Shown here piece by piece: positions 1 to 61,651 of a stretch of 63,541 nucleotides of DNA; position 1 is the first letter of the stretch; every line of letters begins with the position of its first letter. Below the pieces are notes generated by a model. The model searched no databases. It was given only the letters and a program-made list of their open reading frames with translations, and was not told the origin of the DNA. The DNA is taken from positions 1-63,541 of the IMG/VR virus record IMGVR_UViG_3300045391_003833, one strand, 5' to 3'. Source of the stretch: a virus. The translations under genes and the position numbers were made by a program.

Positions 1-69
1 GGCGTTCTGTGGTCGCTCAACAAAGAACTCATCAAATGGATGTGTCTGGGTATATTTTGGAAAACGATC
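1..69. repeat. Terminal overlap: bases 1-69 are identical to 63473-63541 (circular or terminally redundant genome, unit 63,472 bp)
   Basis: Direct comparison of the two window ends; the same 69-nt string ggcgttctgtggtcgctcaac...ggaaaacgatc is present at both. Confidence 0.95.
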
Positions 70-992
70 CTTTATTCGTACACCTTATGCTACCAATGGA
101 ATTTGAGGCAGAGAGAAAATGTCGCACCGTAACACTAAGCGGAAAGGTATGGGAAGATCCAAGGAATATTCCCGGGGAATTATTATGGCCAAACCGCATT
201 GGGGATAGTGCTCTAAAACGGTTAAAGAACGGGTTAGGCTCAGAATATAGGATAGCCGGTCAGTTACAACAGAGGCCTGCACCTGCTGAGGGAGGATTGA
301 TCAAGAAAGCCTGGTGGAAGCTTTGGAAGCATCCATCAGCTCCTAAGTACACTCAGATCATCCAAAGCTGGGATACTGCCCTTAATGCCAATGAGCTTGA
401 TGCTTACTCAGCATGTACGACATGGGGATTATTCAACGATGAAAACGGTATTCCAAACCTCATCTTGATCAATATGTGGCGAGGAAGAGTAGAATATCCA
501 GAACTTAGGAAACTTGCTAAGTTGTTCTATCAAGACTATCGCAATGGTGGGCCGGTAGAGATAAAGGGAAATGGCGATCACGTTCCAGACATTGTGATGG
601 TAGAGGAAAAAGCATCAGGATTTAGTTTGATTCAGGATTTCAGAAGAGCGGGTATTTCAGCTATGAAGTTCAATCCCACGCCTTATGGAGACAAGATAGC
701 CCGGGTTAAACTTTCAAGTTTTGTTATTGAGACTGGAAGAGTATGGTTGCCAGCAAAGGGACCAGACTTTATTACGTTGAAGGACTATGCTCATAACTTC
801 AGGGAACTTTGTTCAGTGTTTCCAAATTCTGAGGCAAGGGATGTCGTAGATAGTATGACTCAGGTTCTAATTAGGTTAATATACAGTGGACAGTTGAGAG
901 GTTCTGAGGATGATAATAGTAAGACGGGTTCTATTATTCCGAAGAATACAGGCTATCCTATAGAAAGGGGTGCTGTGGTTAACATGTTTTGA
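1..992 (+). CDS. terL: Terminase large subunit, C-terminal nuclease part (continues in frame from 62833..63472 across the junction)
   Basis: Frame of ORF 9..992 is continuous with the open frame at the window end through the 69-bp overlap. RNaseH-like nuclease motifs IIQSWDTA, MVEEKASG and DVVDSMTQ are present. Confidence 0.9.
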   Translation, partial: RSVVAQQRTHQMDVSGYILENDPLFVHLMLPMEFEAERKCRTVTLSGKVWEDPRNIPGELLWPNRIGDSALKRLKNGLGSEYRIAGQLQQRPAPAEGGLIKKAWWKLWKHPSAPKYTQIIQSWDTALNANELDAYSACTTWGLFNDENGIPNLILINMWRGRVEYPELRKLAKLFYQDYRNGGPVEIKGNGDHVPDIVMVEEKASGFSLIQDFRRAGISAMKFNPTPYGDKIARVKLSSFVIETGRVWLPAKGPDFITLKDYAHNFRELCSVFPNSEARDVVDSMTQVLIRLIYSGQLRGSEDDNSKTGSIIPKNTGYPIERGAVVNMF

Positions 993-1497: not shown

Positions 1498-1925
1498 TGA
1501 CTATTACCACATCACAATTGGTTGATTTATTAAGACCGGGTTGGAATGCGTATTGTGACGCTCTTCAGAATGATAAGAAATTTAGAGCAAAAGTATTGCG
1601 TGAGATAAGAAGAGATAAGAAAAGAGAGGCTTTGATAGAGGAAGCTATTAAGAGAGTTTCTGAAGAGGAAGGAGATGCTTTTGCGAAAGGGTTTGAGCAT
1701 TACAGAAGTATTATTCAAAAAGCTTTGGCAATTATTGACAAGGGTTACAGAAAAGATCCGGAACGTTTTTACATTGATGAAGAGCTGATGAAATGGGAAG
1801 GTCTTTATGACGATCCAATTATAAACTACGGGGATTGTCACATATTCTTAGATAAACATCAGTTTAGGTTATTTTACTTAATAGCGGTTGCTAAGGGATA
1901 TATTAAGCCTAAAAAAAGTACTTGA
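1497..1925 (+). CDS. hypothetical protein (142 aa)
   Basis: ORF track; coupled to upstream ORF; its TGA stop lies inside the TTGACA of the next promoter. Confidence 0.55.
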   Translation: MTITTSQLVDLLRPGWNAYCDALQNDKKFRAKVLREIRRDKKREALIEEAIKRVSEEEGDAFAKGFEHYRSIIQKALAIIDKGYRKDPERFYIDEELMKWEGLYDDPIINYGDCHIFLDKHQFRLFYLIAVAKGYIKPKKST

Positions 1926-1950
1926 CAACGTATGTACATATGTTATTATT
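1922..1950 (+). promoter_or_regulatory. Sigma70-type phage promoter P1 (TTGACA-17-ATTATT) with ACGTATGTA spacer element
   Basis: TTGACA 1922-1927, 17-bp spacer acgtatgtacatatgtt, ATTATT 1945-1950. About 25 nt are identical to the promoter at 49195. Confidence 0.7.
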
Positions 1951-3427: not shown

Positions 3428-4603
3428 ATGTTAGGTTGTGGTTTGTATGGAATGTTAGAACATTACGTTGATAAAGGTCTCGTACGTAAGTGTGAGATGG
3501 ATAACCTAGTTTTGTATAAGTACACAGAAAAATGTGTGTACTGTAAAGGATGGTACAAAGAAACTAGACTTGCAAGGGGTCTTATCCTTAACAAGGATAC
3601 TGGTGAGATAGTGGCTCATCCTTTCCCGAAGTTCTTTAATCTTAATGAGATGCCGGAGAGTAGTTATAACGAGATAATAAAGCATAAGGAATATGAAGTT
3701 TACGATAAGCTAGATGGAAGTCTTGGAATAAGCTATTTACATAATGGGATAGTAAAGATTGCCACTGTTGGTAGTTTTGTGAGCGAGCAGGCTGTTGAAG
3801 CAACAGATATATTGCTTGAATTGTATCAAGGAGCTGCTAGGGCAATAGAGAAGTATGACGGTATTACTTTTCTTTTTGAAATAATTTACCCTTCAAATAA
3901 GATAGTGTGTGATTATAAGGGAAAAAGGGAGTTAGTGTTATTAGCTGCTTTTAGATATAAAAGTGCTTTTGATTTGGATATTGGATATGAATTTCCCCGC
4001 GAATGGTTATATCGTTTTTCCGAGACATATGGAATACCAATTGTAGAAAAACTAAATTACACAATAGATGAGATGATAGCTTTACAGAAAACTCTCCCTA
4101 AAGACAAAGAGGGTTTTGTAGTAAGGTTCCCAAATGGTCTTAGGGTTAAGTTTAAAGGTGAGGAGTACTTGCGGATTCATAAGCTTGCTACTGAGTGTTC
4201 TCCTTTATCTGTGTGGGAGAATATGAAGTATGGGAAGGTTCCTTTAGAGGTAACTATGAATATTCCCGAGGAATATTTGGAAGAGTTTAAAGAGATAGAG
4301 AAACAATTGATATCTCAATATTGGACAGTATATGGAGAGGTGACAGAGGAATTTATTCGTAACTTTTCGGAATATTATAGATCTAATGCTGAATGGGAAG
4401 GAGATAGATTAGTATTTAACTATACTCCTACGCCTGAGGAGCGAAAAGAAGTGGGTTTAAAAATAAAGAATAATCCTGATAAGTTTAAACATGCTTCTTG
4501 TATGTTTCCTTTAATTCTGGATAAAGTAGAGTCAGTAGATAAGTACGTAATGGATTATATTAGGCCAAAGGCAAATAAACTTGATGGGTTAGATGTGGAG
4601 TAA
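3428..4603 (+). CDS. RNA ligase, T4 Rnl1-like (tRNA repair-type ATP-dependent ligase)
   Basis: KxDG motif I (VYDKLDGSLG), FLFEIIYP, EGFVVRF and VKFKGEEY motifs. PFPKFFNLNE and GSFVSEQA match remembered T4 Rnl1 PMEKFFNLNE and GSIKSEQA. Length of 391 aa is similar to T4 Rnl1. Confidence 0.8.
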   Translation: MLGCGLYGMLEHYVDKGLVRKCEMDNLVLYKYTEKCVYCKGWYKETRLARGLILNKDTGEIVAHPFPKFFNLNEMPESSYNEIIKHKEYEVYDKLDGSLGISYLHNGIVKIATVGSFVSEQAVEATDILLELYQGAARAIEKYDGITFLFEIIYPSNKIVCDYKGKRELVLLAAFRYKSAFDLDIGYEFPREWLYRFSETYGIPIVEKLNYTIDEMIALQKTLPKDKEGFVVRFPNGLRVKFKGEEYLRIHKLATECSPLSVWENMKYGKVPLEVTMNIPEEYLEEFKEIEKQLISQYWTVYGEVTEEFIRNFSEYYRSNAEWEGDRLVFNYTPTPEERKEVGLKIKNNPDKFKHASCMFPLILDKVESVDKYVMDYIRPKANKLDGLDVE

Positions 4604-6019: not shown

Positions 6020-6733
6020 ATGTTAACCTTTATAAAAGTCGTATTTATAACTTTATTTCTGATATATCCATTTTCGGTCAAAGGAAATGAATTCTTATTC
6101 GAAAACCTACGTCCATACTTTGGCTTAGATGTCCAAATCCGGTCCATGAAGTACATGGAAGGCATGGGGGATAACCTATTTAAGCCAAAATCTCCTCAAG
6201 GCAACATCTATGCAGGTCTTAGGCTTAACGATTACGTTGGGATAGAGGCAGGCTATGAAACTACTCCTATGAGGACTAGAGGAGTGGAAATACAAGCTGG
6301 AGAACGCTCTCTTGGTCTATCTCCCATGCTACCACCTGAAAAACATCTTACCAAGTCCAAGATCAAAGGCTGGCATGGGGCAATTATTGGGTTTTTCCCA
6401 ATAGTTGATCGGGCAGACGGTAAGCTAGAGGCTATGGGCTACATTGGAACGATAAGGCTGAAGGTGTTTAACCAAGACATATTGTTTGCGAACAAAAGTG
6501 GTCCTTTGAATATTCTAACAACCAGTCGAACGTTTGTTTCAAGGAAGTCTCTCTTAAAACTAGGAGCTGGTTTTCAATATACCGTGAACCATACCGGTTT
6601 TCGATTTATGCTTGGATATGAAAACAGCAAACGGTTTAACCGAATGGCTCCAAACGAGAATGCAAAGAGCCAGAAAAGACTGGGGATAAAGAACTCGTTC
6701 CTGATGGGGATTGGATTTTTTGTTGTGATTTAA
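6020..6733 (+). CDS. Outer-membrane beta-barrel protein (OMP_b-brl/OmpA-like barrel), signal peptide; moron cargo
   Basis: N-terminal signal sequence MLTFIKVVFITLFLIYPFSVKG. Alternating beta-strand pattern. Paralogous to 7562..8107 (YFGLDVQIRSM / YGGLELQVRDM; GIEAGYE / SLEAGAN). Confidence 0.65.
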   Translation: MLTFIKVVFITLFLIYPFSVKGNEFLFENLRPYFGLDVQIRSMKYMEGMGDNLFKPKSPQGNIYAGLRLNDYVGIEAGYETTPMRTRGVEIQAGERSLGLSPMLPPEKHLTKSKIKGWHGAIIGFFPIVDRADGKLEAMGYIGTIRLKVFNQDILFANKSGPLNILTTSRTFVSRKSLLKLGAGFQYTVNHTGFRFMLGYENSKRFNRMAPNENAKSQKRLGIKNSFLMGIGFFVVI

Positions 6734-6739
6734 ACAATC

Positions 6740-7501
6740 CTACATGTTAGCCGGGCCGTTCATTCTGTCTTTTTCAGCCGCTATAGCAGCTTGATAGCCA
6801 GCGTTGTAGCCTAACTTATAGGTGTTGTCAACCGAAACAGCATGACTAGCAATTATTCTCTGGGAATATTCTAGAGAACTTCTTGTCTTGGCATGATCTT
6901 GTTGCTCAGCTATCAATGCAGCTTGAGTAGCCTCATGTAAGACTTTCTCGTTAATCATGGCGGCTTTTGTTTCTAGTCTTAATTTTATCTCAGATGCAAT
7001 CTCCGCATCTCTCTTAGAAATATCAGCTTTCGCTTTAGATTCTTGCTCTAAAATTTGCTGCTCATATAGCTTCTTTTGAGCAGATAGCTCGCTCTCATAC
7101 TTTCTTGATAAATCTGCTGTGATTTTGGCGATCGCATCTTGCATATCTTTTACATGTCGTTCGTGCTGTGCCTTTAGCTCATCAGCATGATTTTTCCTAA
7201 GCATCAAAAGCTCATCAGAATTAACCTTGTCTGTGACAGTCTTTATCTCAACATCAAGCTTGTCCGGAGGGGTAGCTGGAGAAACATTTCCAGACGAAGG
7301 AGGTGGCAATATTATTTCTGGTGGAGTATGTACACCCTTCTTATTTGGAGAAGCCGTCTTAGAATTAGGCATAGACCATATTTCAGGGGTTAAAAGATTT
7401 GCAGCGGTAGGGGACTGAGGAGATGAATGCGCCGAACCAGCTCCATCTACTACAACATATCCAGATTGAGAGTTTTGCATCTCAGATGAACTTTTTGACA
7501 T
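6740..7501 (-). CDS. Pro/Ser-rich N-terminus plus long coiled-coil protein (about 253 aa); possible host-interaction cargo
   Basis: ORF track, trimmed to the Met of MSKSSSEMQ. Low-complexity SP/TP/PPP region followed by heptad-like charged helices. Confidence 0.5.
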   Translation of the reverse strand: MSKSSSEMQNSQSGYVVVDGAGSAHSSPQSPTAANLLTPEIWSMPNSKTASPNKKGVHTPPEIILPPPSSGNVSPATPPDKLDVEIKTVTDKVNSDELLMLRKNHADELKAQHERHVKDMQDAIAKITADLSRKYESELSAQKKLYEQQILEQESKAKADISKRDAEIASEIKLRLETKAAMINEKVLHEATQAALIAEQQDHAKTRSSLEYSQRIIASHAVSVDNTYKLGYNAGYQAAIAAEKDRMNGPANM

Positions 7502-7525
7502 TGCGTGCTCCCTGCACTTAAGAAT

Positions 7526-7552
7526 CAACCGGTGACAATTTGTCACCGGTTG
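7526..7552. other. Perfect 13-bp inverted repeat CAACCGGTGACAA-T-TTGTCACCGGTTG between the two minus-strand cargo genes
   Basis: Read directly. Sits between the stop of 7562..8107 and the start of 6740..7501. No strong T-run follows. Confidence 0.6.
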
Positions 7553-7561
7553 AAATTTCCA

Positions 7562-8107
7562 TTAGAAAGTCTTGATAACTCCAAGGCTATAAGAGGTACT
7601 ATCTTTCGACCGTACAAAGCTGTCTTTCAGCTTCTTGGTCTTTTCATGGGCTACAGAGGCTCTAATATCTAATCCATCTAAAATGGAGTATTGCAAGCCA
7701 ACCAATCCCCTAGGAACGACCTTCTTTAGCTTACTCTGCTTAAGTTTAGCTGCATTATGATAGGTTGCGCTTACTCTAGCAGCTCCAAGCCCACCCAATA
7801 ATGTGACCTTGTTACTTAATGGATAATGCCCAATAGCACCTAAATGCACAGCATTTGACTTGTGAAAGTTTTTGCTTTTGTGAGTAAACCTGCAAATGTT
7901 AGCCCCAGCTTCTAAACTAACGTTCTCATGTACTTTAACACCAGCTAAAATATTAGGCTGTAAGGCAGCAGGTGAAAAAACACCAATATTACCGTCTCTT
8001 ACTCCCATATCACGGACTTGAAGCTCTAATCCGCCATAAATAGATGGGTCGTTTGCTTTAGCCCCAAAAGGCAAAATCAATAAAAGAATTGCTACTAATC
8101 GTTTCAT
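7562..8107 (-). CDS. Outer-membrane beta-barrel protein (8-strand OmpA/OmpW-like size), signal peptide, C-terminal Phe
   Basis: Signal peptide MKRLVAILLLILPFGAKA. Ends in GVIKTF, an OMP C-terminal signature. SD GGGAG lies upstream. Confidence 0.7.
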   Translation of the reverse strand: MKRLVAILLLILPFGAKANDPSIYGGLELQVRDMGVRDGNIGVFSPAALQPNILAGVKVHENVSLEAGANICRFTHKSKNFHKSNAVHLGAIGHYPLSNKVTLLGGLGAARVSATYHNAAKLKQSKLKKVVPRGLVGLQYSILDGLDIRASVAHEKTKKLKDSFVRSKDSTSYSLGVIKTF

Positions 8108-8140
8108 GTAAAAAACTCCCTATAAGTTTAAGTTCTGACT

Positions 8141-8169
8141 ATAGTACATATCTGATATTAATTTGTCAA
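8141..8169 (-). promoter_or_regulatory. Sigma70 promoter for the OMP moron (TTGACA-17-TACTAT on the minus strand)
   Basis: The reverse complement reads TTGACAaattaatatcagatatgTACTAT, followed about 30 nt later by GGGAG and ATG. Confidence 0.7.
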
Positions 8170-8199
8170 CAGGGTGATTTGTGAATATGCAAAAAAAAC

Positions 8200-8228
8200 T
8201 TGACAACGTATGTAGGTGTTGCTACGCT
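8200..8228 (+). promoter_or_regulatory. Phage promoter P2 (TTGACA-17-TACGCT) with ACGTATGTAGG spacer element
   Basis: TTGACA 8200-8205, spacer acgtatgtaggtgttgc, TACGCT 8223-8228. Back-to-back with the OMP promoter. Confidence 0.65.
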
Positions 8229-8324
8229 TTACAAAATTGATTAAGGGGTAAGGATCATGGAAAGTAAGTGGAAAGTTTATTTGTATGATTTCGGAATGGC
8301 AATAGTAATGGGAGTAACAGCTTC

Positions 8325-8549
8325 ATGGATGACATTAAAGCTATTATCAATAATGTAAAGAATTCTTTAAAAAATTTGAGAGAAGAAGACTGTAGTATTG
8401 CTAAAGAAGTGACAACTTTTTTTTCATGGCTTAGTTGTTTTCTTACTCCAATTGTTTTATGTGTTATAACCGATTGTTGGTGGATTTGTTTATTCTATCC
8501 TATTTTTGGATTTTCTTGGCTATATTTTATGGGCAAAAAAGATGATTGA
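8325..8549 (+). CDS. hypothetical membrane protein (74 aa)
   Basis: ORF track; hydrophobic, Cys/Trp-rich C-terminal half. Confidence 0.45.
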   Translation: MDDIKAIINNVKNSLKNLREEDCSIAKEVTTFFSWLSCFLTPIVLCVITDCWWICLFYPIFGFSWLYFMGKKDD

Positions 8550-8745
8550 GGTAAAAGAAGAGCTAAATAGCCAAGCGTTTCTGAATATGAAAGCTTTACG
8601 AAAAAGTATTGATAATATCAACTCATTTAAGAGTGAGGTTGATAAGATTGTTGATTATTTGAAGTCAAAACGTAAGATAAGATCACGTACTAGTGATGCT
8701 TATAACACACTTGTTAAAAGGAAGGGGAAAAATAATGGCTATTAA
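8542..8745 (+). CDS. hypothetical protein (67 aa)
   Basis: ORF track, trimmed to the ATG that overlaps the upstream stop (gATGATTGA). Confidence 0.45.
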   Translation: MIEVKEELNSQAFLNMKALRKSIDNINSFKSEVDKIVDYLKSKRKIRSRTSDAYNTLVKRKGKNNGY

Positions 8746-9733
8746 GAAATCGGTAAAGAAGAAAATTGAAAAGAAAAAGAAGGTGGTTAAAAAACCTGTA
8801 AAAAATAGTTCTGTAAAGAAGAAGCTTGTTAAGAAAAAGGTTGTAAGGAAGGTTTTAAATAATCACCCTCTTGAGCCTACCCCTTGGCAAGAATTTCTGG
8901 ATGAATTTAATAATTCAGATATTGACATGAATCAACCTTGTAAACTTGTTCTTGAAGAAAATAAGCCAGAAGAAAAGGTTTACAAGTGGGTTAATATAAT
9001 ATTTCACGATATGCCAATGATGGATAAAATTCAATCTGCGTATAATCTTGGCGGAAATGCCGTTTCTGTTGCGCAATATAAGAAGAATAAGGATATGTTT
9101 GACAAGCTTTTCACATCTAGTCCACGTTTTATGCGTGAAAATGACGGTCTTGAGTTAGAGAAAGATGATAATGTTTGCAAGCTTTACAAAAATGAAGACG
9201 GTACGATAAATAAAGTTGTCTTGTTTGAATTCCCAAAGAGCGAATTAGACAGAAGGGATAGAGAATATCTAGACATGTTTTCTGGTTTAGAAGGTGTTGA
9301 GAAGATAGATGCAAGATGGGGAAGTTCGTGTACTCCTACTATTGGCTCTATTGACGTTAGGTCGCAGTACTTTAAAGAAAAAATGGAAGAAATGGAAGAA
9401 TTTGAAAAGCTTATAGGTCCTGTGGAAGACCCTGTTGAGCTTGCAGTTCTTATGAAGGAAAAAAACCGAGAAGAATGGGAAAAGAGAAAAGAGGCATATC
9501 TAGGCTCTAAGATTGATAGCCATGAAATTGACTATCTTGGTGAACACAGTACCTTTAAAAAAGTGGCTGATAAGTATCTTGATAAAGAGCAAAAAGAGAT
9601 TGCTGACTTGATGGGAATGTCTAGGTTTAGATATTTACTCGGTTGGATTGAAGATATATTAGACAATGTAGATGCTTATGGGTTCTATGCTCGGGGTAGG
9701 GTTAAGGTCGAAGGATACGATAGTTTCGAATGA
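8735..9733 (+). CDS. Lysine-rich histone H1-like N-terminal tail fused to an unknown ~290-aa domain
   Basis: Trimmed to MAIKKSVKKKIEKKKKVVKKPVKNSSVKKKLVKKKVVRKV, with SD aaggaaggggaaaaataATG. Its stop overlaps the patatin start (ATGA). Confidence 0.6.
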   Translation: MAIKKSVKKKIEKKKKVVKKPVKNSSVKKKLVKKKVVRKVLNNHPLEPTPWQEFLDEFNNSDIDMNQPCKLVLEENKPEEKVYKWVNIIFHDMPMMDKIQSAYNLGGNAVSVAQYKKNKDMFDKLFTSSPRFMRENDGLELEKDDNVCKLYKNEDGTINKVVLFEFPKSELDRRDREYLDMFSGLEGVEKIDARWGSSCTPTIGSIDVRSQYFKEKMEEMEEFEKLIGPVEDPVELAVLMKEKNREEWEKRKEAYLGSKIDSHEIDYLGEHSTFKKVADKYLDKEQKEIADLMGMSRFRYLLGWIEDILDNVDAYGFYARGRVKVEGYDSFE

Positions 9734-10713
9734 AAAAGTTTAAGATACTTTCAATAGATGGTGGAGGGGTAAGAGGGGTGATTCCTGCTCGCATCTTACA
9801 GGCCATTGAAGAAGAGCAAGGAAAGCCTATATCAGATATCTTCGATATGATTATAGGCACGTCTACAGGGGCATTAATTGCTCTTTGTCTGGCTTCTCCC
9901 ATTCCTCCTTACAAGGCTTCTGAGATAGTAGATATCTACCTAAAAGAGTCAAAAAACATCTTCAAGAAATCTATCTGGAGGATGATTACCACCGGAGATG
10001 GATTGTGGGCACCGAAATATGATCGCACCTACTTAGACGATCTTCTTAAAAAAACGTTCTCAACCAACAAGAATGGGCTTAGTCATAGCTTGCTGAGTCA
10101 TGCTAAATGTAAGGTATTGATACCAACTTATTGTCTTTGCCGAGGAGAGCCAATCGTTCATTCTTCCGAAGATGCTATTAAGTCTATGGTTCATGACTTT
10201 AAAATGTGGGAAATAGCGGCGGCAGCAACTGCTTCTCCTGTTTACTTTAAGCCTTTCTGGATGAAGCATAAAAAGGGACTAGAGTGGAATGATAAAAGCG
10301 CATGGGGTTTAGAGGTGGACGGAGGGATATGGGTCAATAATCCCGAATCTTTGGCTGTTTGCGAGTTTGCAAAACTCTCAGAGAGTAAAAAGTATGAGTC
10401 TATATCTGTTCTCTCTATTGGCACCGGTAAGCCAAGATATTCAATGAATCGACTTGCTTTGGACAATCCAGGCGTTATTGGATGGTTTGACAATGGCTTT
10501 ATCGACATGATGATAAACGCTGACATGGACGAAACAGCCATGCTAAGCAAAGCCATATTCAATAATCATCACAGGGTTCAATTTACTCTAGAACAGGATT
10601 ATCAACTTGATGAAGGGGACGACGATACCATGAAAGCGTTGTTAAAGATTGCAGAAGGTATTATTGCGGATAAAGGCGAAATGGATAAGGTTAGGGAGAT
10701 AGTTAATGCTTGA
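9730..10713 (+). CDS. Patatin-like phospholipase
   Basis: GGGVRG oxyanion motif, GTSTG nucleophile elbow (GxSxG) and a DGG catalytic Asp motif (VDGGIWVNNP). Confidence 0.9.
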   Translation: MKKFKILSIDGGGVRGVIPARILQAIEEEQGKPISDIFDMIIGTSTGALIALCLASPIPPYKASEIVDIYLKESKNIFKKSIWRMITTGDGLWAPKYDRTYLDDLLKKTFSTNKNGLSHSLLSHAKCKVLIPTYCLCRGEPIVHSSEDAIKSMVHDFKMWEIAAAATASPVYFKPFWMKHKKGLEWNDKSAWGLEVDGGIWVNNPESLAVCEFAKLSESKKYESISVLSIGTGKPRYSMNRLALDNPGVIGWFDNGFIDMMINADMDETAMLSKAIFNNHHRVQFTLEQDYQLDEGDDDTMKALLKIAEGIIADKGEMDKVREIVNA

Positions 10714-10870
10714 AACAGAATTTGAGCCAACAATAGAATATTCAGAATGCCTATGTGGCTGCTGTCCTGAGTGCGACGTAAGAGAGTTTTGGGATAATCT
10801 TCGGATGAAACCATGGACAAGCACTATTATTGAAAAATACACTCTCGATCTTTCTAAATACTTTTCTTAA
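10706..10870 (+). CDS. small Cys-rich protein (54 aa), below the ORF-track cutoff
   Basis: ATG overlaps the patatin stop (aATGcTTGA). Contains CLCGCCPEC. Confidence 0.35.
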   Translation: MLETEFEPTIEYSECLCGCCPECDVREFWDNLRMKPWTSTIIEKYTLDLSKYFS

Positions 10871-10958
10871 AGTGTAGATGCACTTTAGTTAAATCACTTT
10901 ACTTTGTGAAATAACTGTTGTAGGATTATTGAGTTTCAATTATCAACTTGGATGATAA

Positions 10959-13487
10959 GTGGCTCAATACGGACGTGAGAGTTATTCAGATCTTGGGCAG
11001 CCTGAAATGCAGGTTCAGTATCCACCACAAGATTTTGAATTAAGTGCAGTTACACAACCGGTTGAGCCACCAGAAGATTTCTACGAAAACCTTGCGTTTA
11101 AGATTAGAGATAGTGTTCTACTCGACTTAAGCAACAAGTTACTTGAAGAGATAGAAGGGGATATAGCGGCCCGCCAGGGATGGGAAACCGCTATAAATAT
11201 TGTCCTCAAGTACCTAGGCTTCAAGATAGAAGAATCCAGAACCGTTCCATTCATCCAAGCCTGCGGTGCATTTGACACCACGTTAGCCAGAGCTTTAGTC
11301 AGCGCCTACGCAACCATCTTTCCTCAATTATTCCCTCCTCAAGGACCTGCTAAGGTTCAAATAAACGGTGTTCCGACAAAAGAAGTAGAAGACGAAGGAG
11401 AACGGGTTAAGTACTTCATGAATTACTACTTAACCGAGGTAGACAGAGAATACAGACCTGATTCAGAATCTTGCGTGATGCAAACCATATTCTATGGAAG
11501 CGGTTTCAAACAAGTATGGCAAGACACAATCCTAAACAGACCAGTTTCAAGATTCATAAAACCACAAGACTTCATTGTTAACCCAGACACAGAAAGCCTA
11601 TTATCAGCTGAACGTATTACCAAGGTAATTCGATTCGATAAGAGAACGGTCAAGCTAAAAGAAAGAAGCGGAGAGTTTAAAAAAGGAACCTTCCCTTACC
11701 AAGATGACAACGTAGACGAACCTTCTGCTATTAACAAGACCATTAACAATATGGAAGGCATTTCAAAAGAAAGCCAGGAAAAGAAAAGCCTTATTGAATA
11801 CTACGAAGTTCACACCAACCTTACAGACGAAGATTTAAAATTTATCAACGGTATGCCAGAGCCTGAACCTTTAGAAGATTCAGAATTTGGAAGTACAGAA
11901 GACAATGGATTAGGAGATACGGTTGACGAAACCGAAGAAGACGAATCAGACGACATTCCAAAGCCTTATGTAATCACTATTTGCAAGTCAAGCGAGAAAA
12001 TAGTCTCTATCAAGAGAAACTGGAAAGAAGGTAATGAGAATTACGAAAAACTAGAACACTTTGTAAACTACTACTATCTAAAAGGATTTGGTATTTACGG
12101 ATTAGGTTTAGTGCATCTCTTAGGCTCTAACGCAGTTGCCTTGACTACGATTGAAAGACAATTGATTGACGCCGCTACTTTAAAGAATTTCCCAGGTGGT
12201 TATAAGCGCAAAGACTTCAAAGCAGAAGACAATAATATTTCCCCAAGCCCAGGTTCATTTATTGATGTAGAAACGGGTGGAATGGAACCGATACAGAATG
12301 GATTTATGTTGATGCCGTATGGTGAGCCATCTCAGGTTCTGATGGCGTTAAGAGATGCATTGATACAGGAAACCGCTGCGTTGGCTGCAACGGCTGAGAA
12401 AGCCATTCCTGAGAATGTTAATCAGAACATGCCAGTTGGAACTGCATTAGCTTACTTAGAGGTTAACTCTCGTATTCAGTCTGCGGTTGTCTCTTCTTTC
12501 TACCACTCTGTTGGAACTGAATTACAACTTATTGGTAATCTTTTTGGTGAGCATTTATCAGATGAGCCATACCCTTTCACTGTGCCTGGTGGAAACATGG
12601 CCATTATGCGTAAGGATTTCAGTGACAGGATTAGAATTTGCCCAGTAGCAGACCCTAATGTGTTAACCAGTACTCATCGCTTGATAAGAGATCAAGAGTT
12701 GATGAAGCTAGCCCAGATGTTCCCTCAGCTCTATAACATGAGGGAAGTGAACTCTAGAATGCTTAATTCTATGAACATTGAGGCTATAGACAAGATTTTG
12801 CTTCCTGAGCCTACAGAGGTGGCATTAGATGCTATAAGTGAGAACATGCTTATCATCTCAGGAAAGCCTGTTACTGTATTGCCTAACCAAGATCATGATT
12901 CTCATATCATAGACCATCTTAAAGATGCCATGGAACAAAAGATGATGGGAAACATGCAAGCGTTTGTCTCTATTACCATGCATTCACAGGTACACAAGGG
13001 ATTTAAGGCTTTGCATAGTTTAATGCAAGAAATAGACCAAATGAGTATGAAAGCTCAAATGTCTCAGAATTTTGAAATGATGCAAGAAGTACAACAAAGG
13101 GGTATGCAGATACAACAATGGTCTCAAGCGACTGCTAAAGACATTCTTACTATCCCAGAGATTCAAAACAAGGTTAGCAAAATGGATGCTGAAGAGATTA
13201 AACAGCAGCAACAAATGGCTGCACAGCAACCTCAGCCAATCGACCCAGCTATTCCTGTGTTAGAAGATGTGAAACAGAAGAGAGAAGCTGCGCAGTTGAA
13301 ATATGATTCGGACCTTAAGAAAGTTGAGCTTGAAGCTTATAAGACATCGACTGAGTTTGAATCTGACAAGATGAAGTTGGAGACTGACAGAGATTTAGCA
13401 GAAGAAAAGAACAAGGTAACGTTACAAGTTGAAAAGATGAAGCAATCAAAGCGAGGGGGTAAAAATGAAACCAGGGTACCAAGGTAG
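10959..13487 (+). CDS. Portal protein (842 aa) with Gln-rich charged C-terminal extension
   Basis: Size and position at the head of the morphogenesis module, upstream of scaffold and capsid. The central region resembles podovirus portals. GTG start follows an in-frame TAA. Confidence 0.7.
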   Translation: MAQYGRESYSDLGQPEMQVQYPPQDFELSAVTQPVEPPEDFYENLAFKIRDSVLLDLSNKLLEEIEGDIAARQGWETAINIVLKYLGFKIEESRTVPFIQACGAFDTTLARALVSAYATIFPQLFPPQGPAKVQINGVPTKEVEDEGERVKYFMNYYLTEVDREYRPDSESCVMQTIFYGSGFKQVWQDTILNRPVSRFIKPQDFIVNPDTESLLSAERITKVIRFDKRTVKLKERSGEFKKGTFPYQDDNVDEPSAINKTINNMEGISKESQEKKSLIEYYEVHTNLTDEDLKFINGMPEPEPLEDSEFGSTEDNGLGDTVDETEEDESDDIPKPYVITICKSSEKIVSIKRNWKEGNENYEKLEHFVNYYYLKGFGIYGLGLVHLLGSNAVALTTIERQLIDAATLKNFPGGYKRKDFKAEDNNISPSPGSFIDVETGGMEPIQNGFMLMPYGEPSQVLMALRDALIQETAALAATAEKAIPENVNQNMPVGTALAYLEVNSRIQSAVVSSFYHSVGTELQLIGNLFGEHLSDEPYPFTVPGGNMAIMRKDFSDRIRICPVADPNVLTSTHRLIRDQELMKLAQMFPQLYNMREVNSRMLNSMNIEAIDKILLPEPTEVALDAISENMLIISGKPVTVLPNQDHDSHIIDHLKDAMEQKMMGNMQAFVSITMHSQVHKGFKALHSLMQEIDQMSMKAQMSQNFEMMQEVQQRGMQIQQWSQATAKDILTIPEIQNKVSKMDAEEIKQQQQMAAQQPQPIDPAIPVLEDVKQKREAAQLKYDSDLKKVELEAYKTSTEFESDKMKLETDRDLAEEKNKVTLQVEKMKQSKRGGKNETRVPR

Positions 13488-30913: not shown

Positions 30914-31816
30914 ATGGCATTTAGTGTAAATTATCAAGCTGCAACTGCACCTCCTTGGCAAGACACGGGGATGCAAAATCTTATTAGAGATGCGGATGTT
31001 CTTGGAGCAGCTCCGTATATCCCGTATCGTGAATCAAGACTTGCACAATTCTCACCGGATACTTTAGAAGCACAAAGACTTGCAAGAGCTGGATTAGGCG
31101 AGTATTTGCCTTATTTGCAGAGAGCCGAAAGTTATCTTCCAAGAGCAGGTGCGCCCGCGTATGAAAACATACGTAGGTACATGAATCCTTATGAACAAGA
31201 AGTAATTGATCGCGCAGGACAGGACGCTACGAAAACCTTTAGAGAAGGCATCCTGCCTCAGCTTGAACAGCAATTTGTAAGCCGAGGTCAATTAGGCTCT
31301 AAACGTCACAGAGAGCTTGCTTTGCAAGCTGCTGCTGATCTTCAAAATAACCTAGCAGGCCAAAGAGCTTCTATGCGTTCCAAGCATTACCAAGAAGCTG
31401 CAAACATGCAGCATGCGGACCAAATACGTGCAATGGAAACAGCCCGTCAACTAGCAAGTTTAGCAAATCAAAGGCAAGCTGGACGAGCAGTCGATACGAG
31501 TATTCTGTCTGGAATTGGGGGAGATACTGAGGCACGAAGGCAACAAGAGCTAAACATGAGATATGAAGCTTTTATGCGTCAACTTGAATACCCATGGGAT
31601 ATGGTACAAAGACGTGCAAACATACTTCACGGAATGCCTATGCAAACCATGACATCCACACTTAATATGGAACCATTACAACGTCAAACTAATACCGCCG
31701 GCCTTTTAGGAAGTATGGCATTACAAGCATTGGGTGCCCGGATGGCCATGGGAAACAGAGGTGGAAATCCCCTTGGACTTAAACGCGGGGGCGCAATTCC
31801 AATGAGGGCCAGATAA
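30914..31816 (+). CDS. internal virion protein (300 aa)
   Basis: ORF track; Gln/Arg-rich helical; C-terminal KRGGAIPMRAR. Confidence 0.5.
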   Translation: MAFSVNYQAATAPPWQDTGMQNLIRDADVLGAAPYIPYRESRLAQFSPDTLEAQRLARAGLGEYLPYLQRAESYLPRAGAPAYENIRRYMNPYEQEVIDRAGQDATKTFREGILPQLEQQFVSRGQLGSKRHRELALQAAADLQNNLAGQRASMRSKHYQEAANMQHADQIRAMETARQLASLANQRQAGRAVDTSILSGIGGDTEARRQQELNMRYEAFMRQLEYPWDMVQRRANILHGMPMQTMTSTLNMEPLQRQTNTAGLLGSMALQALGARMAMGNRGGNPLGLKRGGAIPMRAR

Positions 31817-37598: not shown

Positions 37599-37793
37599 AT
37601 GTTAGTTTTAAGCAGGATGGTAGGACAAGGAGTTACTTTAAATCTTCCCAATGGGGAAACGGTTAAGCTCAAGATATTGACTTACAAAGGTCCCCATACC
37701 CAAATCGGGATCATTGCCCCGAAATCCGTCATTATTCTAAGGGACGAACTAGTGAAACAACACGAAAATTATTCCCAGGGAATAAATGCTTGA
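37599..37793 (+). CDS. csrA: CsrA/RsmA-family RNA-binding translational regulator homologue (64 aa)
   Basis: MLVLSRMVGQGVTL...TQIGIIAPKSVIILRDEL aligns with remembered E. coli CsrA MLILTRRVGETLMIG...VRIGVNAPKEVSVHREEI, including the GxxxIGIxAP core and the critical Arg. SD aaaggagacaaggaATG. Confidence 0.85.
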   Translation: MLVLSRMVGQGVTLNLPNGETVKLKILTYKGPHTQIGIIAPKSVIILRDELVKQHENYSQGINA

Positions 37794-39253: not shown

Positions 39254-39753
39254 ACTTTAAGCAATTTTCAGATCACGTTATAAGACCCACTCTTATCAGC
39301 CTTTCAACTTATACTCTAAAGTCTTATTTTTCGGAAAATGCTATCGCTCTTCTATTAGCTACTATGGCTCAAGAGTCACAGGGAGAATATCTCATTCAAC
39401 AAGGTGGACCAGCCGTTGGACTGTTTCAAATGGAGCCTGCTACTTTCCATAGTCTTTGGAAGAACGAAATAGAGGGAAAACCTATTCAAAATCACTTAGC
39501 TAAGGTATGTAACTTTTCAAGAACTCCGATTGCCGAAGACATGATTTACAACCTAAAGCTAGCTGTGGCAATCGCTCGAATTTTTTATTGGAATATTGAA
39601 GAGCCTCTTCCAAGTTATCGTGATGCTGAAGGGATTTGGAAGTACTACAAGAAGTATTGGAACACTGAGAAAGGTGAAGCAACGAGGGAGCAGTTCATGG
39701 AGAACTACAACAGGTATTGTAAGGGACTATATGACGGAAAAGAAAATAGGTAA
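39250..39753 (+). CDS. Lytic transglycosylase (SLT)-like lysozyme, candidate endolysin
   Basis: ATMAQESQGEYLIQQGGPAVGLFQMEPATF carries the E-S...GLxQ SLT signature. Confidence 0.6.
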   Translation: MNFKQFSDHVIRPTLISLSTYTLKSYFSENAIALLLATMAQESQGEYLIQQGGPAVGLFQMEPATFHSLWKNEIEGKPIQNHLAKVCNFSRTPIAEDMIYNLKLAVAIARIFYWNIEEPLPSYRDAEGIWKYYKKYWNTEKGEATREQFMENYNRYCKGLYDGKENR

Positions 39754-40258
39754 GATTTGGATTAACGGAAAGCTCGTATACTATCCAGACTATTTAAAAG
39801 AGGCTTGTAAGCCTCCAAAGAGACGCAAGAGAAAAAAGAAGGGCGATAAGAACGATAAAAGATTCATCCATGGCATGGGCTCTAAAAAAAGAGGGGTAAC
39901 TCCCACTTATTGGACCTGGCAAAAGATAAAGAATTACTACATGTTTAAGAAAAGAACCACAGGGATTGACCGACCATTTCATCCTGCATGGCTGGAAGAT
40001 AAAACCGGTTTCTTGAACTTCTTACAAGACATGGGAGAGAAGCCATCCCGAAGTCACAAGCTCAGATTGCTTGTCAAGAATGACGGACATATTCCTGGGA
40101 ATTGTATTTGGAAAGAATGTGGTAAGGTGTCTATTATCTGCCGGGTGTGTGGAGTTGAGTTTGTGAAATGGCGTTCAAAGAGAGACCTTGCAAAATATTG
40201 CAGTAATAAATGCAAGAGGGAAAGAAATCCTTTTAAAAAGCGTCCTCTCCCTCAATAA
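39731..40258 (+). CDS. Homing-endonuclease-like DNA-binding protein with C-terminal zinc ribbon
   Basis: HGMG..TPTYWTWQKIK...FLNFLQDMGEKPS.SHKL.LLVKNDGHIPGNCIW resembles a widespread phage family usually annotated as HNH/homing-endonuclease-like. CRVCG...CSNKC is also present. Confidence 0.45.
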   Translation: MTEKKIGKIWINGKLVYYPDYLKEACKPPKRRKRKKKGDKNDKRFIHGMGSKKRGVTPTYWTWQKIKNYYMFKKRTTGIDRPFHPAWLEDKTGFLNFLQDMGEKPSRSHKLRLLVKNDGHIPGNCIWKECGKVSIICRVCGVEFVKWRSKRDLAKYCSNKCKRERNPFKKRPLPQ

Positions 40259-41347: not shown

Positions 41348-41382
41348 ACCTAGTATCTCCTTAAACAAATAAAAAATAAAAC

Positions 41383-41411
41383 TTGACAACGTATGTAGGA
41401 GCATACATACT
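41383..41411 (+). promoter_or_regulatory. Rightward early promoter P4 (TTGACA-17-CATACT) with operator-like GTATGTA-6-TACATAC
   Basis: TTGACA 41383-41388, CATACT 41406-41411. Inverted repeat 41391-41397 / 41404-41410. Confidence 0.65.
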
Positions 41412-42127: not shown

Positions 42128-42196
42128 AATCTAAATCCCAAAGTTAAGCCACGTAAGTTATTACATGGTTTAACTTTGCTTAAAAAAGGTAAAAGT

Positions 42197-42637
42197 ATGA
42201 AAAAAAATAGTAAAAAGAAAGGCAAAAGCCTCCACACAAGAGAATGTCGACGCCATGGAGTGTTATCTATTGATAACTTCTACAAGTGTCATCATCCAGA
42301 TGGAGGATATATCTATAAGTGCAAGCATTGCGCTAAAGATAGCTACATTCGGAACAAAAAATATATCTTAGAGTATGCAAGATGGTATTCTAACAGATAT
42401 TATAAACGGAACAAAGAAAAAATATTAAAAAAAGCTCGTGAGGAATATAGGAGAAATGGTAGTAAGCGAATGGAATATTATATAAATAACCGTGAAAAGT
42501 ACTTAGAAAGAGCTAAGAGATATTATAAGACGAATCTTGAGTATCACCGCAAACGTGCTCGGCTTTACTATTGGAGAAACAAAGAAAGACTTTTAAAGCA
42601 AATGAAGAAGTACAGAGAAAGAAATAAGAGAGGGTAA
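42197..42637 (+). CDS. Basic zinc-finger protein with Tyr/Arg/Lys-rich helical repeats
   Basis: CRRHG..CHHPDG..CKHC, then repeats NKEKILKKAREEYRRN / NREKYLERAKRYYKTN / NKERLLKQMKKYRERN. Confidence 0.5.
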   Translation: MKKNSKKKGKSLHTRECRRHGVLSIDNFYKCHHPDGGYIYKCKHCAKDSYIRNKKYILEYARWYSNRYYKRNKEKILKKAREEYRRNGSKRMEYYINNREKYLERAKRYYKTNLEYHRKRARLYYWRNKERLLKQMKKYRERNKRG

Positions 42638-42642
42638 AAGAT

Positions 42643-42719
42643 TGGTCAAGGTGGTGGGATTTGAACTCACGGCCCTCTGCTCCCAAAGCAGATGCTCTAC
42701 CAGGCTGAGCTACACCCTG
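42643..42719 (-). tRNA. tRNA-Pro (anticodon UGG), CCA encoded
   Basis: Manual cloverleaf on the reverse complement: CAGGGTG/TA/GCTC-AGCCTGGTA-GAGC/A/TCTGC-TTTGGGA-GCAGA/GGGCC/GTGAG-TTCAAAT-CCCAC/CACCTTG/A/CCA. There is one A-C mismatch in the T stem. Confidence 0.8.
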
Positions 42720-45526: not shown

Positions 45527-45611
45527 GGATGGGTGTCAGAGTGTTTATTGAGACGGACTGTAAATTCGTTGGTTTATGCTATCGTAGGTTAAAATCCTAC
45601 CCCATCCACCA
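45527..45611 (+). tRNA. tRNA-Tyr (anticodon GUA), long variable arm, CCA encoded, non-canonical D and T loops
   Basis: Manual fold: GGATGGG/TG/TCAG-AGTGTTTA-TTGA/G/ACGGA-CTGTAAA-TTCGT/TGGTTTATGCTATC/GTAGG-TTAAAAT-CCTAC/CCCATCC/A/CCA. The T loop is TTA rather than TTC and the D loop lacks GG. Confidence 0.7.
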
Positions 45612-49100: not shown

Positions 49101-49194
49101 CATTATTCTCTGGGGAATATTCTTCCTTATCCTTATAGACATAGTTAGGATTTTTACTAAGTGAAAATATTTTGCAAAAAAGTGAAAAAAGTAC

Positions 49195-49223
49195 TTGACA
49201 ACGTATGTAGGTACCTGCATACT
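49195..49223 (+). promoter_or_regulatory. Phage promoter P5 (TTGACA-17-CATACT) with ACGTATGTAGG element
   Basis: TTGACA 49195-49200, CATACT 49218-49223. The upstream aaaaagtacttgacaacgtatgta is identical to P1. Confidence 0.7.
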
Positions 49224-52412: not shown

Positions 52413-53336
52413 ATGATTTTGTTTATTATTGGTTTTATTTTATTGGTTGGTTCAGGTTTTGCTTATTGGTTTCTTAAGTGGGACTTAGACAACATTTGGT
52501 CTAAATTAGGGTCTATAGGTGGGATGGGGTTTGGTATCTTAATAATGACACTAAACCTCGTAACATTCATTAACCCTGGGGAAGTAGGTGTAGTGGTTGA
52601 CCTGTTTGGTTCTGACAGAGGCGTAGAAGACAAAGAAATTACAGTGGGGATGCACATAGTGATGCCCTGGAAGAGGGTCTATGTATTCCCAATCTTTGAG
52701 CAAAACCATCAATGGACAGGCAACGAAAAGTTTACCTTTCAGACTTCTGAGGGCCTTTCAGTAAGCTCTGAAGTAGGTATTACCTATAATTTAGTTCCTA
52801 GTCGTATCCATGAGCTCTTTAGCAAGTACCGCAGAGGTATGGACGAGATTACGCATTTATTCGTCAGGAATAATATCCGTGACGCGATGAATCGATATTC
52901 GTCTAGAATGAAGATAGAAGAACTTTACGGAGAGAAGAAGGAAGACTTCTTTACCAAGATTCTGACAGACGTAAATACAGAGCTTTCACCGCTTGGGTTT
53001 AACATCTCGCATATCTATATCATTGGGCAATTTGACGTCCCGCCGACGGTAAAAGAAGCCTTAAACAAGAAGATTGAGGCTATTCAGAGAGCGCAGCAAA
53101 GAGAGAATGAGCTGAGAGAGGCTGAAGCACAGTCCAGGAAAGAAGTAGCGTTAGCGGAAGGTGAATCAAAGAGTAAGCTGATTAAGGCTAAGGCCGATGC
53201 AGAAGCTAATGCGTTGTTGACCCGCTCACTGAATGATGAGCTCTTGAGATGGGAAGCTATCAACAAGTGGGATGGTAAGTTACCAACTACTATGATGAGC
53301 AAGGAAGTGCCGTTTGTAGTTGGGGCGACCAAATGA
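52413..53336 (+). CDS. SPFH/Band-7 (stomatin-prohibitin-HflK/C-like) membrane protein
   Basis: N-terminal TM helices, then PGEVGVVVDLFG...ITVGMHIVMPW..VYVFP, followed by a coiled-coil AEAQSRKEVALAEGESKSKLIKAKADAEAN. Confidence 0.75.
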   Translation: MILFIIGFILLVGSGFAYWFLKWDLDNIWSKLGSIGGMGFGILIMTLNLVTFINPGEVGVVVDLFGSDRGVEDKEITVGMHIVMPWKRVYVFPIFEQNHQWTGNEKFTFQTSEGLSVSSEVGITYNLVPSRIHELFSKYRRGMDEITHLFVRNNIRDAMNRYSSRMKIEELYGEKKEDFFTKILTDVNTELSPLGFNISHIYIIGQFDVPPTVKEALNKKIEAIQRAQQRENELREAEAQSRKEVALAEGESKSKLIKAKADAEANALLTRSLNDELLRWEAINKWDGKLPTTMMSKEVPFVVGATK

Positions 53337-55676: not shown

Positions 55677-55752
55677 CCTCGTGTAGCTCAGTTGGTAGAG
55701 CAGCTCCTTGTTAAGGAGAAGGTCCGTGGTTCGAGTCCACGCGTGAGGGCCA
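55677..55752 (+). tRNA. tRNA-Asn (anticodon GUU), CCA encoded
   Basis: Manual fold: CCTCGTG/TA/GCTC-AGTTGGTA-GAGC/A/GCTCC-TTGTTAA-GGAGA/AGGTC/CGTGG-TTCGAGT-CCACG/CGTGAGG/G/CCA. Layout matches remembered E. coli tRNA-Asn. Confidence 0.85.
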
Positions 55753-61633: not shown

Positions 61634-61651
61634 AGGCAGGAAATATTGAGC

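Follow-up and report, generated by a model that had tools for sequence, protein, structure and literature searches.

A patatin phospholipase and a small membrane protein in the terminase–portal slot of an uncultivated tailed phage: a possible lysis or egress module

Introduction

Patatin cassettes in phages have been discussed before only for phage WO. The WO cassette comprises a patatin-like phospholipase A2 (PLA2), a small protein resembling holins and a protein with ankyrin repeats, and the patatin with its holin-like neighbour has been proposed as an endolysin-free lysis system (PMC9203015). Among the effectors of cyclic oligonucleotide-based antiphage signalling systems (CBASS), the soluble patatin CapV ruptures the bacterial membrane from inside (PMC12480259). 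Here, we describe a patatin-like phospholipase gene and the accessory genes around it in the IMG/VR record IMGVR_UViG_3300045391_003833 of an uncultivated tailed phage; the whole stretch analysed, positions 1 to 63,541 (63,541 nucleotides, nt), is referred to as the window. The locus adds another phage type, another genomic position and other partners to the WO case, together with a new family of ORFan proteins.

Like phage WO, this phage carries a stand-alone patatin (~31% identity between the two) with a small membrane protein nearby and no canonical endolysin/holin/spanin set, and in both cases the function is hypothetical. However, WO is a temperate, myovirus-like prophage, whereas the phage studied here is apparently a lytic podovirus. 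The WO cassette lies beside the tail module, after the tail gene gpD and next to ankyrin and sometimes phospholipase D genes, while the present one lies between the genes for the large terminase subunit (TerL) and the portal-like protein, and a Pfam scan of the closed genome found no ankyrin domain. The WO membrane protein has one N-terminal transmembrane (TM) helix, in contrast to the two predicted TM helices of the protein found here, which is encoded two genes away from the patatin. Further, the window contains extra ORFan genes that WO does not have, namely a 332-amino-acid (aa) open reading frame (ORF) termed ORF-A, a gene for a 67-aa protein and a cysteine-rich 54-aa ORF termed Cys54.

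More distant comparisons can be drawn with patatins of plants and pathogens. Plant patatin Pat17 (1oxw, 4pk9), a constitutively active lipid acyl hydrolase, shares with the phage enzyme a Ser-Asp dyad and the lack of accessory domains, but it is a vacuolar storage/defence protein, 23% identical and with no biological tie to the phage. ExoU, VipD and Rickettsia Pat1/Pat2 share the patatin core, and the distribution of homologues suggests a similar link to an intracellular lifestyle; these are, however, proteins of 500-700 aa with localisation and cofactor domains, eukaryotic activators and secretion systems, and the phage protein has none of these features. LysB of mycobacteriophages, a cutinase-like esterase, works together with an endolysin. 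LysB and the holin-endolysin-spanin cassettes resemble the present locus in the concept of a lipid-cleaving lysis enzyme and in the small membrane protein beside a lytic enzyme, but the sequences are unrelated, and neither an endolysin nor a spanin was found in this genome.

The window is a complete, closed and circularly permuted phage genome. A tblastn search with the TerL of a related contig, L003, placed residues 1-236 at 62833..63540 and residues 215-543 at 3..989, so that the two halves overlap by ~66 nt across the window ends and residues 215-236 are encoded twice. The splitting of TerL across both ends identifies the window as a closed, permuted, complete genome of 63.5 kb. An identical patatin occurs on a 63,983-bp JGI contig with another breakpoint, and also on a Logan contig.

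The patatin and its membrane partner

The two genes at the centre of the analysis are the following.

9730..10713, + strand: patatin-like phospholipase (PF01734), 327 aa, a single compact domain
8325..8549, + strand: small membrane protein, 74 aa, with two predicted TM helices (2-TM; hydropathy peaks at about residues 29-51 and 42-63) and a holin-like topology

The larger product matches PF01734 over residues 7-209 (E=1.5e-23; 84.4 bits against a gathering cut-off of 27.7) and phrog_25573 (E=2.3e-34). The initial annotation of this DNA had described an intact GGGxRG/GxSxG/DGG set and a probably active enzyme, and the protein does look competent: GGGVRG lies at residues 11-16, GTSTG at 43-47 and DGG at 197-199. 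Across an alignment of 62 sequences G11, G12, G13, G16, G43, S45, G47, D197 and G198 show no variation, and for R15 and G199 conservation is 90% or higher. Ser45 and Asp197 probably form the catalytic dyad, with GGGVRG as the putative oxyanion/phosphate loop. The ratio of nonsynonymous to synonymous substitution rates (dN/dS) relative to L003 is 0.086 for the patatin and 0.068 for the portal gene.

An AlphaFold2 (AF2) model built from the 62-sequence alignment has a predicted local distance difference test score (pLDDT) of 90.1 and a predicted TM-score (pTM) of 0.91. In Foldseek, its best match is plant patatin-17 (1oxw/4pkb; TM-score 0.81, E about 1e-22), and the best sequence match in the PDB is likewise a plant patatin (E=2.7e-23). 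TM-scores to CapV and CapE are 0.73-0.76, whereas those to VipD and ExoU are only 0.34-0.43, with a root-mean-square deviation >13 Å. The kinship with ExoU and VipD that had also been considered was thus rejected for this single 327-aa domain. Sequence prediction found no signal peptide and no true TM helix in the patatin, and its sole hydrophobic stretch, residues 37-58, is the GxSxG strand-helix of the fold. As modelled, the protein belongs to the plant-patatin/CapV/CapE structural type of Ser-Asp phospholipase A, being compact and cytoplasmic; enzymatic activity is probable, and membranes may be its target.

Named homologues of the patatin are found in Candidatus Amoebophilus asiaticus (Aasi_0962), Amoebophilus sp., Candidatus Phycorickettsia, Bacteroidota metagenome-assembled genomes and Wolbachia phage WO. 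The WO patatins (~31% identity) are the sole named phage homologues in GenBank phage records, with tblastn matches to WOVitA1 and five other WO records (31% identity, 96% coverage, E=3e-29). Viral patatins as such are not rare, since at least 84 IMG/VR contigs encode relatives. Among >500 patatins from a metagenome profile scan, no further close relatives of the phage-clade patatin were found.

The 2-TM protein has no match in Pfam, PHROG or NCBIfam. Homologues occur in L003, L004 (partial), L006 and L066, and the motif YP..x..W(L/I)Y is common to all. Its gene is the sole neighbour kept beside the patatin across the five close contigs, and in the whole genome it is the only small multi-TM gene adjoining a lytic-type enzyme gene. 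A holin-like action of this protein may be proposed from its predicted topology.

Resemblance to CBASS effectors

A likeness to CBASS effectors had been noted at the outset, and at the sequence level it is real. The PADLOC CBASS profile 'Effector phospholipase' (PDLC00758) matches the patatin over its full length (E=2e-63), and the NCBIfam model CBASS_lipase (NF041079) gives 186.4 bits (E=7.5e-55), below its curated equivalog cut-off of 200, with patatin residues 4-324 aligned to profile positions 1-304 of 317. Like CapV and CapE (NF041079; PDB 8zr9, 9jeh, 9kh6, 9iom), the phage enzyme is a compact single-domain cytoplasmic patatin with the same motifs and a Glu equivalent to E207.

The residues of AbCapV that contact cyclic GMP-AMP (cGAMP) are F147, K149, D159, E207 and R279 (PMC12480259). 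In a HMMER alignment to 8zr9, which is uncertain in loops, the E207 equivalent is kept, F147, K149 and D159 are replaced by Val, Ser and Val, respectively, and the R279 region is unaligned. CapV-type enzymes differ in their ligand, and this comparison is drawn against AbCapV. In the closed genome, the Pfam scan detected neither a CD-NTase/SMODS cyclase nor Cap2/Cap3 domains. Similarly, four close cellular homologues of the patatin stand alone, with no cyclase adjacent. The phage protein differs from CapV/CapE in its sub-cut-off score, the lack of a CD-NTase, the lack of conservation seen at most cGAMP contacts, its location in a phage cargo slot and the stand-alone state of its closest cellular relatives. 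Membership of the patatin in a CBASS system was rejected because the genome has no cyclase, the cellular homologues stand alone and only the E207 equivalent is clearly kept among the contacts.

Conservation across related phages

In five related contigs (the window, L003, L004, L006 and L066) the patatin gene lies just upstream of the portal gene, with the same 2-TM gene upstream. The window, L003 and L004 share the order 2-TM, 67-aa, ORF-A, patatin, Cys54. In L006, whose patatin is 53% identical, the 2-TM gene is accompanied by a small basic protein and a 220-aa ORF-A homologue, and Cys54 is absent. In L066 (patatin 50% identical) the 2-TM gene abuts the patatin, its stop lying 1 nt before the patatin ATG, and there is no ORF-A. 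Both L006 and L066 have a small single-TM ORF at the patatin 3' end in place of Cys54. The invariant core is the patatin and, in this close clade, the 2-TM protein, while ORF-A, the 67-aa protein and Cys54 are lineage-specific; the lysine-rich and cysteine-rich neighbours are optional extras, not obligate partners. The three-gene coupled cassette of the initial annotation is thus conserved in order, but solely in the three closest genomes (window, L003 and L004). Its suggested reading as a toxin with regulator or immunity partners does not hold for an obligate set, with ORF-A missing in L066 and Cys54 missing in L006 and L066.

Carriage of a lipase is recurrent in this phage group. Contig L069 (IMGVR_UViG_3300046707_000080), whose TerL and portal are 46% and 45% identical to those of the window, has a patatin in a TerL-portal slot of ~10 kb. 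A different 385-aa patatin with intact GGGMRG/GSSIG/DGG motifs lies inside the structural operon of two related podoviruses (L139 3203..4360 and L140 4980..6137), between adaptor-region genes and a 669-aa tail-fibre-like gene with which it overlaps by 4 nt. In these phages the capsid is 38% and the adaptor-like protein 40-42% identical to the window, and the patatin 26%.

A wider survey covered 58 other non-redundant patatin-bearing IMG/VR loci. About 10 of the 58 have a small same-strand TM neighbour, compared with 9% of background small ORFs, and a Lys-rich neighbour was found at none. A general rule that viral patatins come with a small TM, Lys-rich or Cys-rich neighbour was therefore rejected, the TM signal being weak and the Lys-rich neighbour nowhere to be found.

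Cassette layout, promoter and borders

The patatin belongs to a self-contained accessory transcription unit of ~8200..10870, of which the initially described trio is the 3' part. That description had missed both the conserved 2-TM gene and the cassette's own conserved promoter. The remaining features of the unit and its downstream border are listed below.

8200..8228, + strand: putative sigma-70-type promoter, with TTGACA at 8200-8205, a 17-nt spacer starting ACGTATGTAGG, TACGCT at 8223-8228 and an A-rich tract before it
8257..8358, + strand: putative 33-aa micro-ORF (MESKWKVYLYDFGMAIVMGVTASWMTLKLLSIM) with a good ribosome-binding site (AAGGGGTAAGGA)
8542..8745, + strand: 67-aa basic protein, predicted coiled coil, 16 Lys+Arg among 67 residues; 8-nt overlap with the gene upstream and 11-nt overlap with ORF-A
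8735..9733, + strand: ORF-A, 332 aa, with a polybasic Lys/Val-rich N-terminal tail (~45 aa), a middle domain of no known kind and a helix-turn-helix (HTH)-like C-terminal segment (~262-315)
10706..10870, + strand: Cys54, acidic Cys-rich ORF of 54 aa with the invariant core E-C-L-C-x-x-C-P-x-C
10880..10958, + strand: leader/promoter-like region of the portal operon and 3' border of the cassette, with 84% mean identity among the window, L003 and L004

The gene order from the promoter is 33-aa ORF, 2-TM protein, 67-aa protein, ORF-A, patatin and Cys54, and the genes upstream of ORF-A each overlap the next. The three ORFs first reported (ORF-A, patatin and the 54-aa ORF) are present, as are their overlaps. 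The ORF-A stop (TGA, 9731-9733) and the patatin ATG (9730) share ATGA (4 nt), and the patatin stop (TGA, 10711-10713) overlaps the Cys54 ATG (10706) by 8 nt. However, 45 of the 90 adjacent same-strand gene pairs in the whole window overlap, 19 of them in the ATGA manner. With half of all pairs overlapping, start/stop coupling is no special evidence of a functional link in the trio, and the idea that translational coupling implies a functional trio was rejected.

The promoter ends ~30 nt upstream of the 33-aa ORF and belongs to a repeated element of the form CTTGACAACGTATGTAGG. An exact 14-mer, CTTGACAACGTATG, occurs four times in the window, always on the + strand (1921..1934, 8199..8212, 41382..41395 and 49194..49207), and each copy combines an A-rich tract, TTGACA, 17 nt (ACGTATGTAGG...) and a -10-like hexamer. 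Of the other copies, that at 1921 heads another part of the cargo slot, that at 41382 the replication cluster and that at 49194 a small-gene block. Two of the four, including that at 8199, are conserved in L003. The intergenic DNA at 8108..8256 is 89% identical to L003, though coding dS between the two exceeds 1.3 (synonymous sites saturated). The four sites look like a phage promoter class, and 8200..8228 probably functions as a promoter. No inverted or direct repeats of an operator-like kind were found in the cassette promoter region, and a generic promoter/terminator scan gave background level only.

At the other end, region 10880..10958 contains an extended -10-like element, which reads TGTTGTAGGAT here and TGTTATAGTAT in L003 and L004; the 29-mer is found nowhere else in the window. 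The region also holds a short out-of-frame ORF (MDDKWL...), and the three phages are otherwise synonymous-saturated in coding DNA. The stretch before the portal gene looks like a separate promoter and leader.

ORF-A and the small neighbours

ORF-A is a real gene, as judged by its dN/dS of 0.17. Its ATG at 8735 stands behind a strong Shine-Dalgarno sequence (upstream sequence AAGGAAGGGG). Residues 1-46 include 19 Lys and 9 Val, and no ORF in the window has a 30-residue stretch denser in Lys than one within this tail, with 16 of 30. The initial annotation had compared this tail to histone H1; it is indeed rich in Lys and Val, but the likeness is one of composition only, as there is no linker-histone Pfam match and linker histone H1 is rich in Lys, Ala and Pro instead.

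ORF-A is an ORFan: a word-indexed search of 5.8 billion proteins and a HMMER profile search against 1.84 billion representatives found only three members. Viral, genome and metagenome contigs, when scanned, added nothing to these three clade members, and there is no match in Pfam, PHROG, PADLOC, NCBIfam or PDB profiles. For Pfam this extends to E up to 0.01 with the whole protein and 10 with its halves, save for a sub-threshold RelB-like match at E=0.009. An AF2 model from the three sequences is poor (pLDDT 44), with helices 262-315 at pLDDT 66-73. The same HTH-like segment alone relates ORF-A to the 220-aa protein of L006 (hhalign probability 91%, E=1.2e-6, 48 columns); this conserved, helical-predicted stretch of 48 residues has no match in Pfam, PDB or NCBIfam. 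In the L006 homologue the Lys/Val-rich tail is C-terminal, unlike in ORF-A, and its occurrence at either protein end suggests an autonomous electrostatic module for nucleic acid or anionic membrane. ORF-A is a new protein family with a movable polybasic tail and an HTH-like core. Most plausibly it acts as a regulator or an electrostatic anchor, its tail binding nucleic acid or anionic membrane.

A second Lys-tailed protein had been pointed out at 60820..61452. It exists (ORF 60769..61452, with a Met at 60820 from which it begins MVKATKKIVKKAKVSKKGKKVTKD...) and has no match in Pfam, PHROG, PADLOC or NCBIfam, but comparison showed it to be unrelated to ORF-A by sequence, and homology between the two was rejected. 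Two further polybasic stretches, MLKKGKSMKKNSKKKGK at the N-terminus of a Cys/His-rich protein and the internal KPPKRRKRKKKGDK, occur in this proteome (42176..42637 and 39596..40258), which makes Lys-rich tails a recurrent feature of this phage.

The CLCGCCPEC peptide first noted in the 54-aa ORF was confirmed, and its core (E-C-L-C-x-x-C-P-x-C) does not vary among three homologues whose identity is otherwise only 25-40%. The L003 and L004 versions of Cys54 are 60 and 53 aa long, respectively, and share the 8-nt overlap. Its dN/dS of 0.5-0.9 indicates that only the Cys core is constrained, with near neutrality elsewhere. It has no family match and is most plausibly a small Zn-knuckle or other metal-binding protein. 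A DNA-pattern search for the Cys motif hit three viral contigs, one outside any ORF and two in an unrelated 130-aa protein, and was set aside as a generic knuckle or chance. The 130-aa protein ends ...ECLCVECPECSKQILECICVEV, with a Cys knuckle as in Cys54, and is encoded just upstream of terminase-like genes (L064 1819..2211, L065 4696..5088).

For the 67-aa protein, which has no family match, L003 and L004 encode homologues and L006 an analogue; L066 lacks it. The 33-aa micro-ORF shows 67% amino-acid identity to L003, with a dN/dS of 0.97 and a dS of only 0.17, which may reflect constraint on DNA or RNA instead of protein.

Genome and cargo slot

The slot that holds the cassette is bordered as follows.

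1..992, + strand: TerL, C-terminal part, upstream border of the cargo slot (phrog_38 TerL, E=9e-35; N-terminal part at 62833..63540)
10959..13487, + strand: portal-like protein, 842 aa, downstream border of the cargo slot, named from position and size

The portal-like protein has no family match in the Pfam or PHROG scans. Its gene has 54 IMG/VR relatives at ~30% identity, each 1.2-4 kb downstream of TerL. The TerL-portal stretch is 10 kb in the window and 1.2-4 kb, patatin-free, in these 54 distant relatives, which marks it as an expandable cargo slot and bears out the placement of the cassette in a variable cargo position. The slot also holds a T4 Rnl1-type RNA ligase gene (3428..4603) and genes for outer-membrane protein (OMP) beta-barrels. 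The OMP paralogues, at 6020..6733 (+) and 7562..8107 (-), flank a 268-aa Pro/Ser-rich coiled-coil protein at 6740..7546 (-). A perfect 13-bp palindrome followed by a T-rich run (7525..7553) lies between the two minus-strand genes 6740..7546 and 7562..8107.

The capsid gene has Phage_capsid_4 and Mu gpT-like matches, SU10-type adaptor domains are encoded (Pfam), and the PHROG matches include ejection, virion structural and tail-fibre proteins. This gene content indicates a podovirus with an SU10-type adaptor. Neither an integrase (Pfam and PHROG scans) nor a repressor was found among the ORFs of the closed genome, and the phage is apparently lytic.

Elsewhere in the genome, a CsrA homologue (PF02599, E=1.8e-9) lies at 37599..37793, directly 3' of the tail-fibre gene, and an SPFH/Band-7 membrane protein is encoded at 52413..53336 (phrog_200, E=3e-72). 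Five paralogous small ORFs at 58568..59176 and 61646..62199 start MKVKELIE(K/E/A)LSK... (phrog_5861 and phrog_22847), three in tandem and two more 2.5 kb downstream. Three tRNA genes, at 42643..42719 (-), 45527..45611 and 55677..55752, correspond to Pro-TGG, Tyr-GTA and Asn-GTT.

Discussion

Across virtually all ORFs of the closed genome, the Pfam and PHROG scans detected no family of endolysin, lysozyme, amidase, transglycosylase, holin or spanin. Because no endolysin, holin or spanin can be recognised and because WO and CapV provide precedents, a lysis or egress role is favoured for the patatin cassette. We consider it a phospholipase-based envelope-disruption (lysis/egress) module, analogous to that proposed for phage WO, with a likelihood somewhat short of even. 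Acting with the conserved 2-TM protein, the patatin would hydrolyse the membrane phospholipids of the bacterial host itself, and the pair would constitute an envelope-disruption device in a genome without recognisable endolysin or spanin. The mechanism would resemble membrane rupture by CapV, but under phage control. ORF-A with the 67-aa protein, and separately Cys54, would be lineage-specific add-ons that are not needed for safe carriage of the enzyme.

Several points weigh against such a role. The missing endolysin is negative evidence, in a genome in which most ORFs have no family assignment. The other members of the promoter class head replication and small-gene clusters and not the structural operon, which may mean early or middle expression and would imply a control step for a cytoplasmic lipase. 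The charged C-terminus of the 2-TM protein is very short and the protein does not resemble known holins, and a cytoplasmic lipase needs no holin to reach the inner membrane. The 42%-identical patatin of L069 (4977..6002) sits in its slot without 2-TM, Lys-rich or Cys-rich neighbours, and the weak signal at the 58 other viral loci amounts to no strong general TM-patatin rule. Finally, the support is computational, and a genome-contig scan and a protein search with the phage OMP genes gave no host assignment. A bolder version is that a lytic podovirus captured a CapV-type suicide lipase and rewired it with a 2-TM partner and a polybasic HTH-like protein as an endolysin-free lysis system, possibly for a host, such as an intracellular protist symbiont, whose peptidoglycan is sparse or missing; we regard this as unlikely.

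Alternatively, the patatin, possibly with a DNA-binding ORF-A, could be carried in or on the particle as an entry lipase that crosses a lipid barrier such as an outer membrane, vesicles or a host-derived vacuole. The cassette lies directly upstream of the portal gene with no terminator before the portal operon, and the 385-aa patatin of L139 and L140 is embedded in a structural operon. However, that enzyme is only 26% identical, occupies another locus and may have been acquired independently. The patatin of the window consists of the catalytic domain alone, without structural-protein fusion or extension, the promoter of its cassette belongs to the class of non-structural clusters, and the ejection-protein genes lie elsewhere (30914..31816, phrog_4287). 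We consider a virion-associated enzyme quite improbable.

The phage might also infect a symbiont or pathogen that lives inside the cells of a protist or animal, with the patatin attacking the vacuole or cell membrane on release and ORF-A targeted to the nucleus or nucleic acid. The closest named homologues, in Amoebophilus (Aasi_0962), Phycorickettsia and Wolbachia phage WO, agree with such a setting, as does the best viral structural match, a protein of the amoeba giant virus Catovirus (TM-score 0.82, 29% identity). The lack of a peptidoglycan hydrolase would fit a host with a reduced cell wall, several OMP beta-barrel genes are phage-borne, and the ORF-A tail resembles a classical polybasic nuclear localisation signal. 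On the other hand, searches with the OMPs gave no host, the proteins have neither a secretion signal nor a known effector-delivery domain, and the compact enzyme is unlike the eukaryote-activated ExoU and VipD (TM-score 0.34-0.43). Other close homologues are ordinary stand-alone bacterial genes, and the ORF-A tail is not conserved in position, belongs to a dispensable gene and has polybasic counterparts elsewhere in the proteome. We consider cargo directed at a eukaryotic cell quite unlikely.

A CBASS-related function, either as an effector of abortive infection or superinfection exclusion or as an anti-CBASS decoy for host cyclic nucleotides, would account for the full-length match to PDLC00758 (E=2e-63), the 186.4 bits for CBASS_lipase and the TM-scores of 0.73-0.76 to CapV and CapE. 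It would also suit a moron-like slot beside OMP genes and a sigma-70 promoter of the cassette's own. Nevertheless, the score stays under the 200-bit cut-off, no CD-NTase/SMODS or Cap2/Cap3 was found in the closed genome, the four close cellular homologues have no adjacent cyclase and only the E207 equivalent remains of the AbCapV cGAMP contacts. With no integrase or repressor found there is no lysogen to protect, and a pure sponge is hard to reconcile with catalytic residues that are intact and under strong purifying selection. We give this function little credence.

As little can be said for a toxin whose dedicated partners, ORF-A and/or Cys54, bind the patatin as inhibitor, immunity protein or activator with coupling setting the stoichiometry: three genomes retain the order and the 4- and 8-nt overlaps, purifying selection acts on ORF-A (dN/dS 0.17) and a cytoplasmic lipase made before the end of infection needs restraint, but the patatin occurs without ORF-A, the 67-aa protein and Cys54 in L066, without ORF-A or Cys54 in L069, and without Cys54 and with a truncated and rearranged ORF-A in L006, while overlaps are the genomic norm (45/90 pairs), Cys54 is almost neutral outside its Cys core and a Lys-rich neighbour occurs at 0 of the 58 other viral patatin loci.

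How phages enter or leave hosts with unusual envelopes without the holin-endolysin-spanin set is poorly understood. The WO patatin cassette has been the only discussed candidate for such a route, and genetic testing in Wolbachia is impossible. The phage described here represents a second, independent lineage in which a patatin is accompanied by a conserved small membrane partner and an endolysin is not detectable, and its compact genes and readily modelled patatin make the lysis hypothesis testable in heterologous hosts. Further, the lipase fold of CBASS abortive infection circulates in phages, on at least 84 IMG/VR contigs and at two loci within one podovirus group, which bears on the exchange between defence effectors and the lysis or entry tools of phages. 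The importance of the locus would rise if the patatin were indeed the sole lysis device of this phage or a repurposed CBASS effector.

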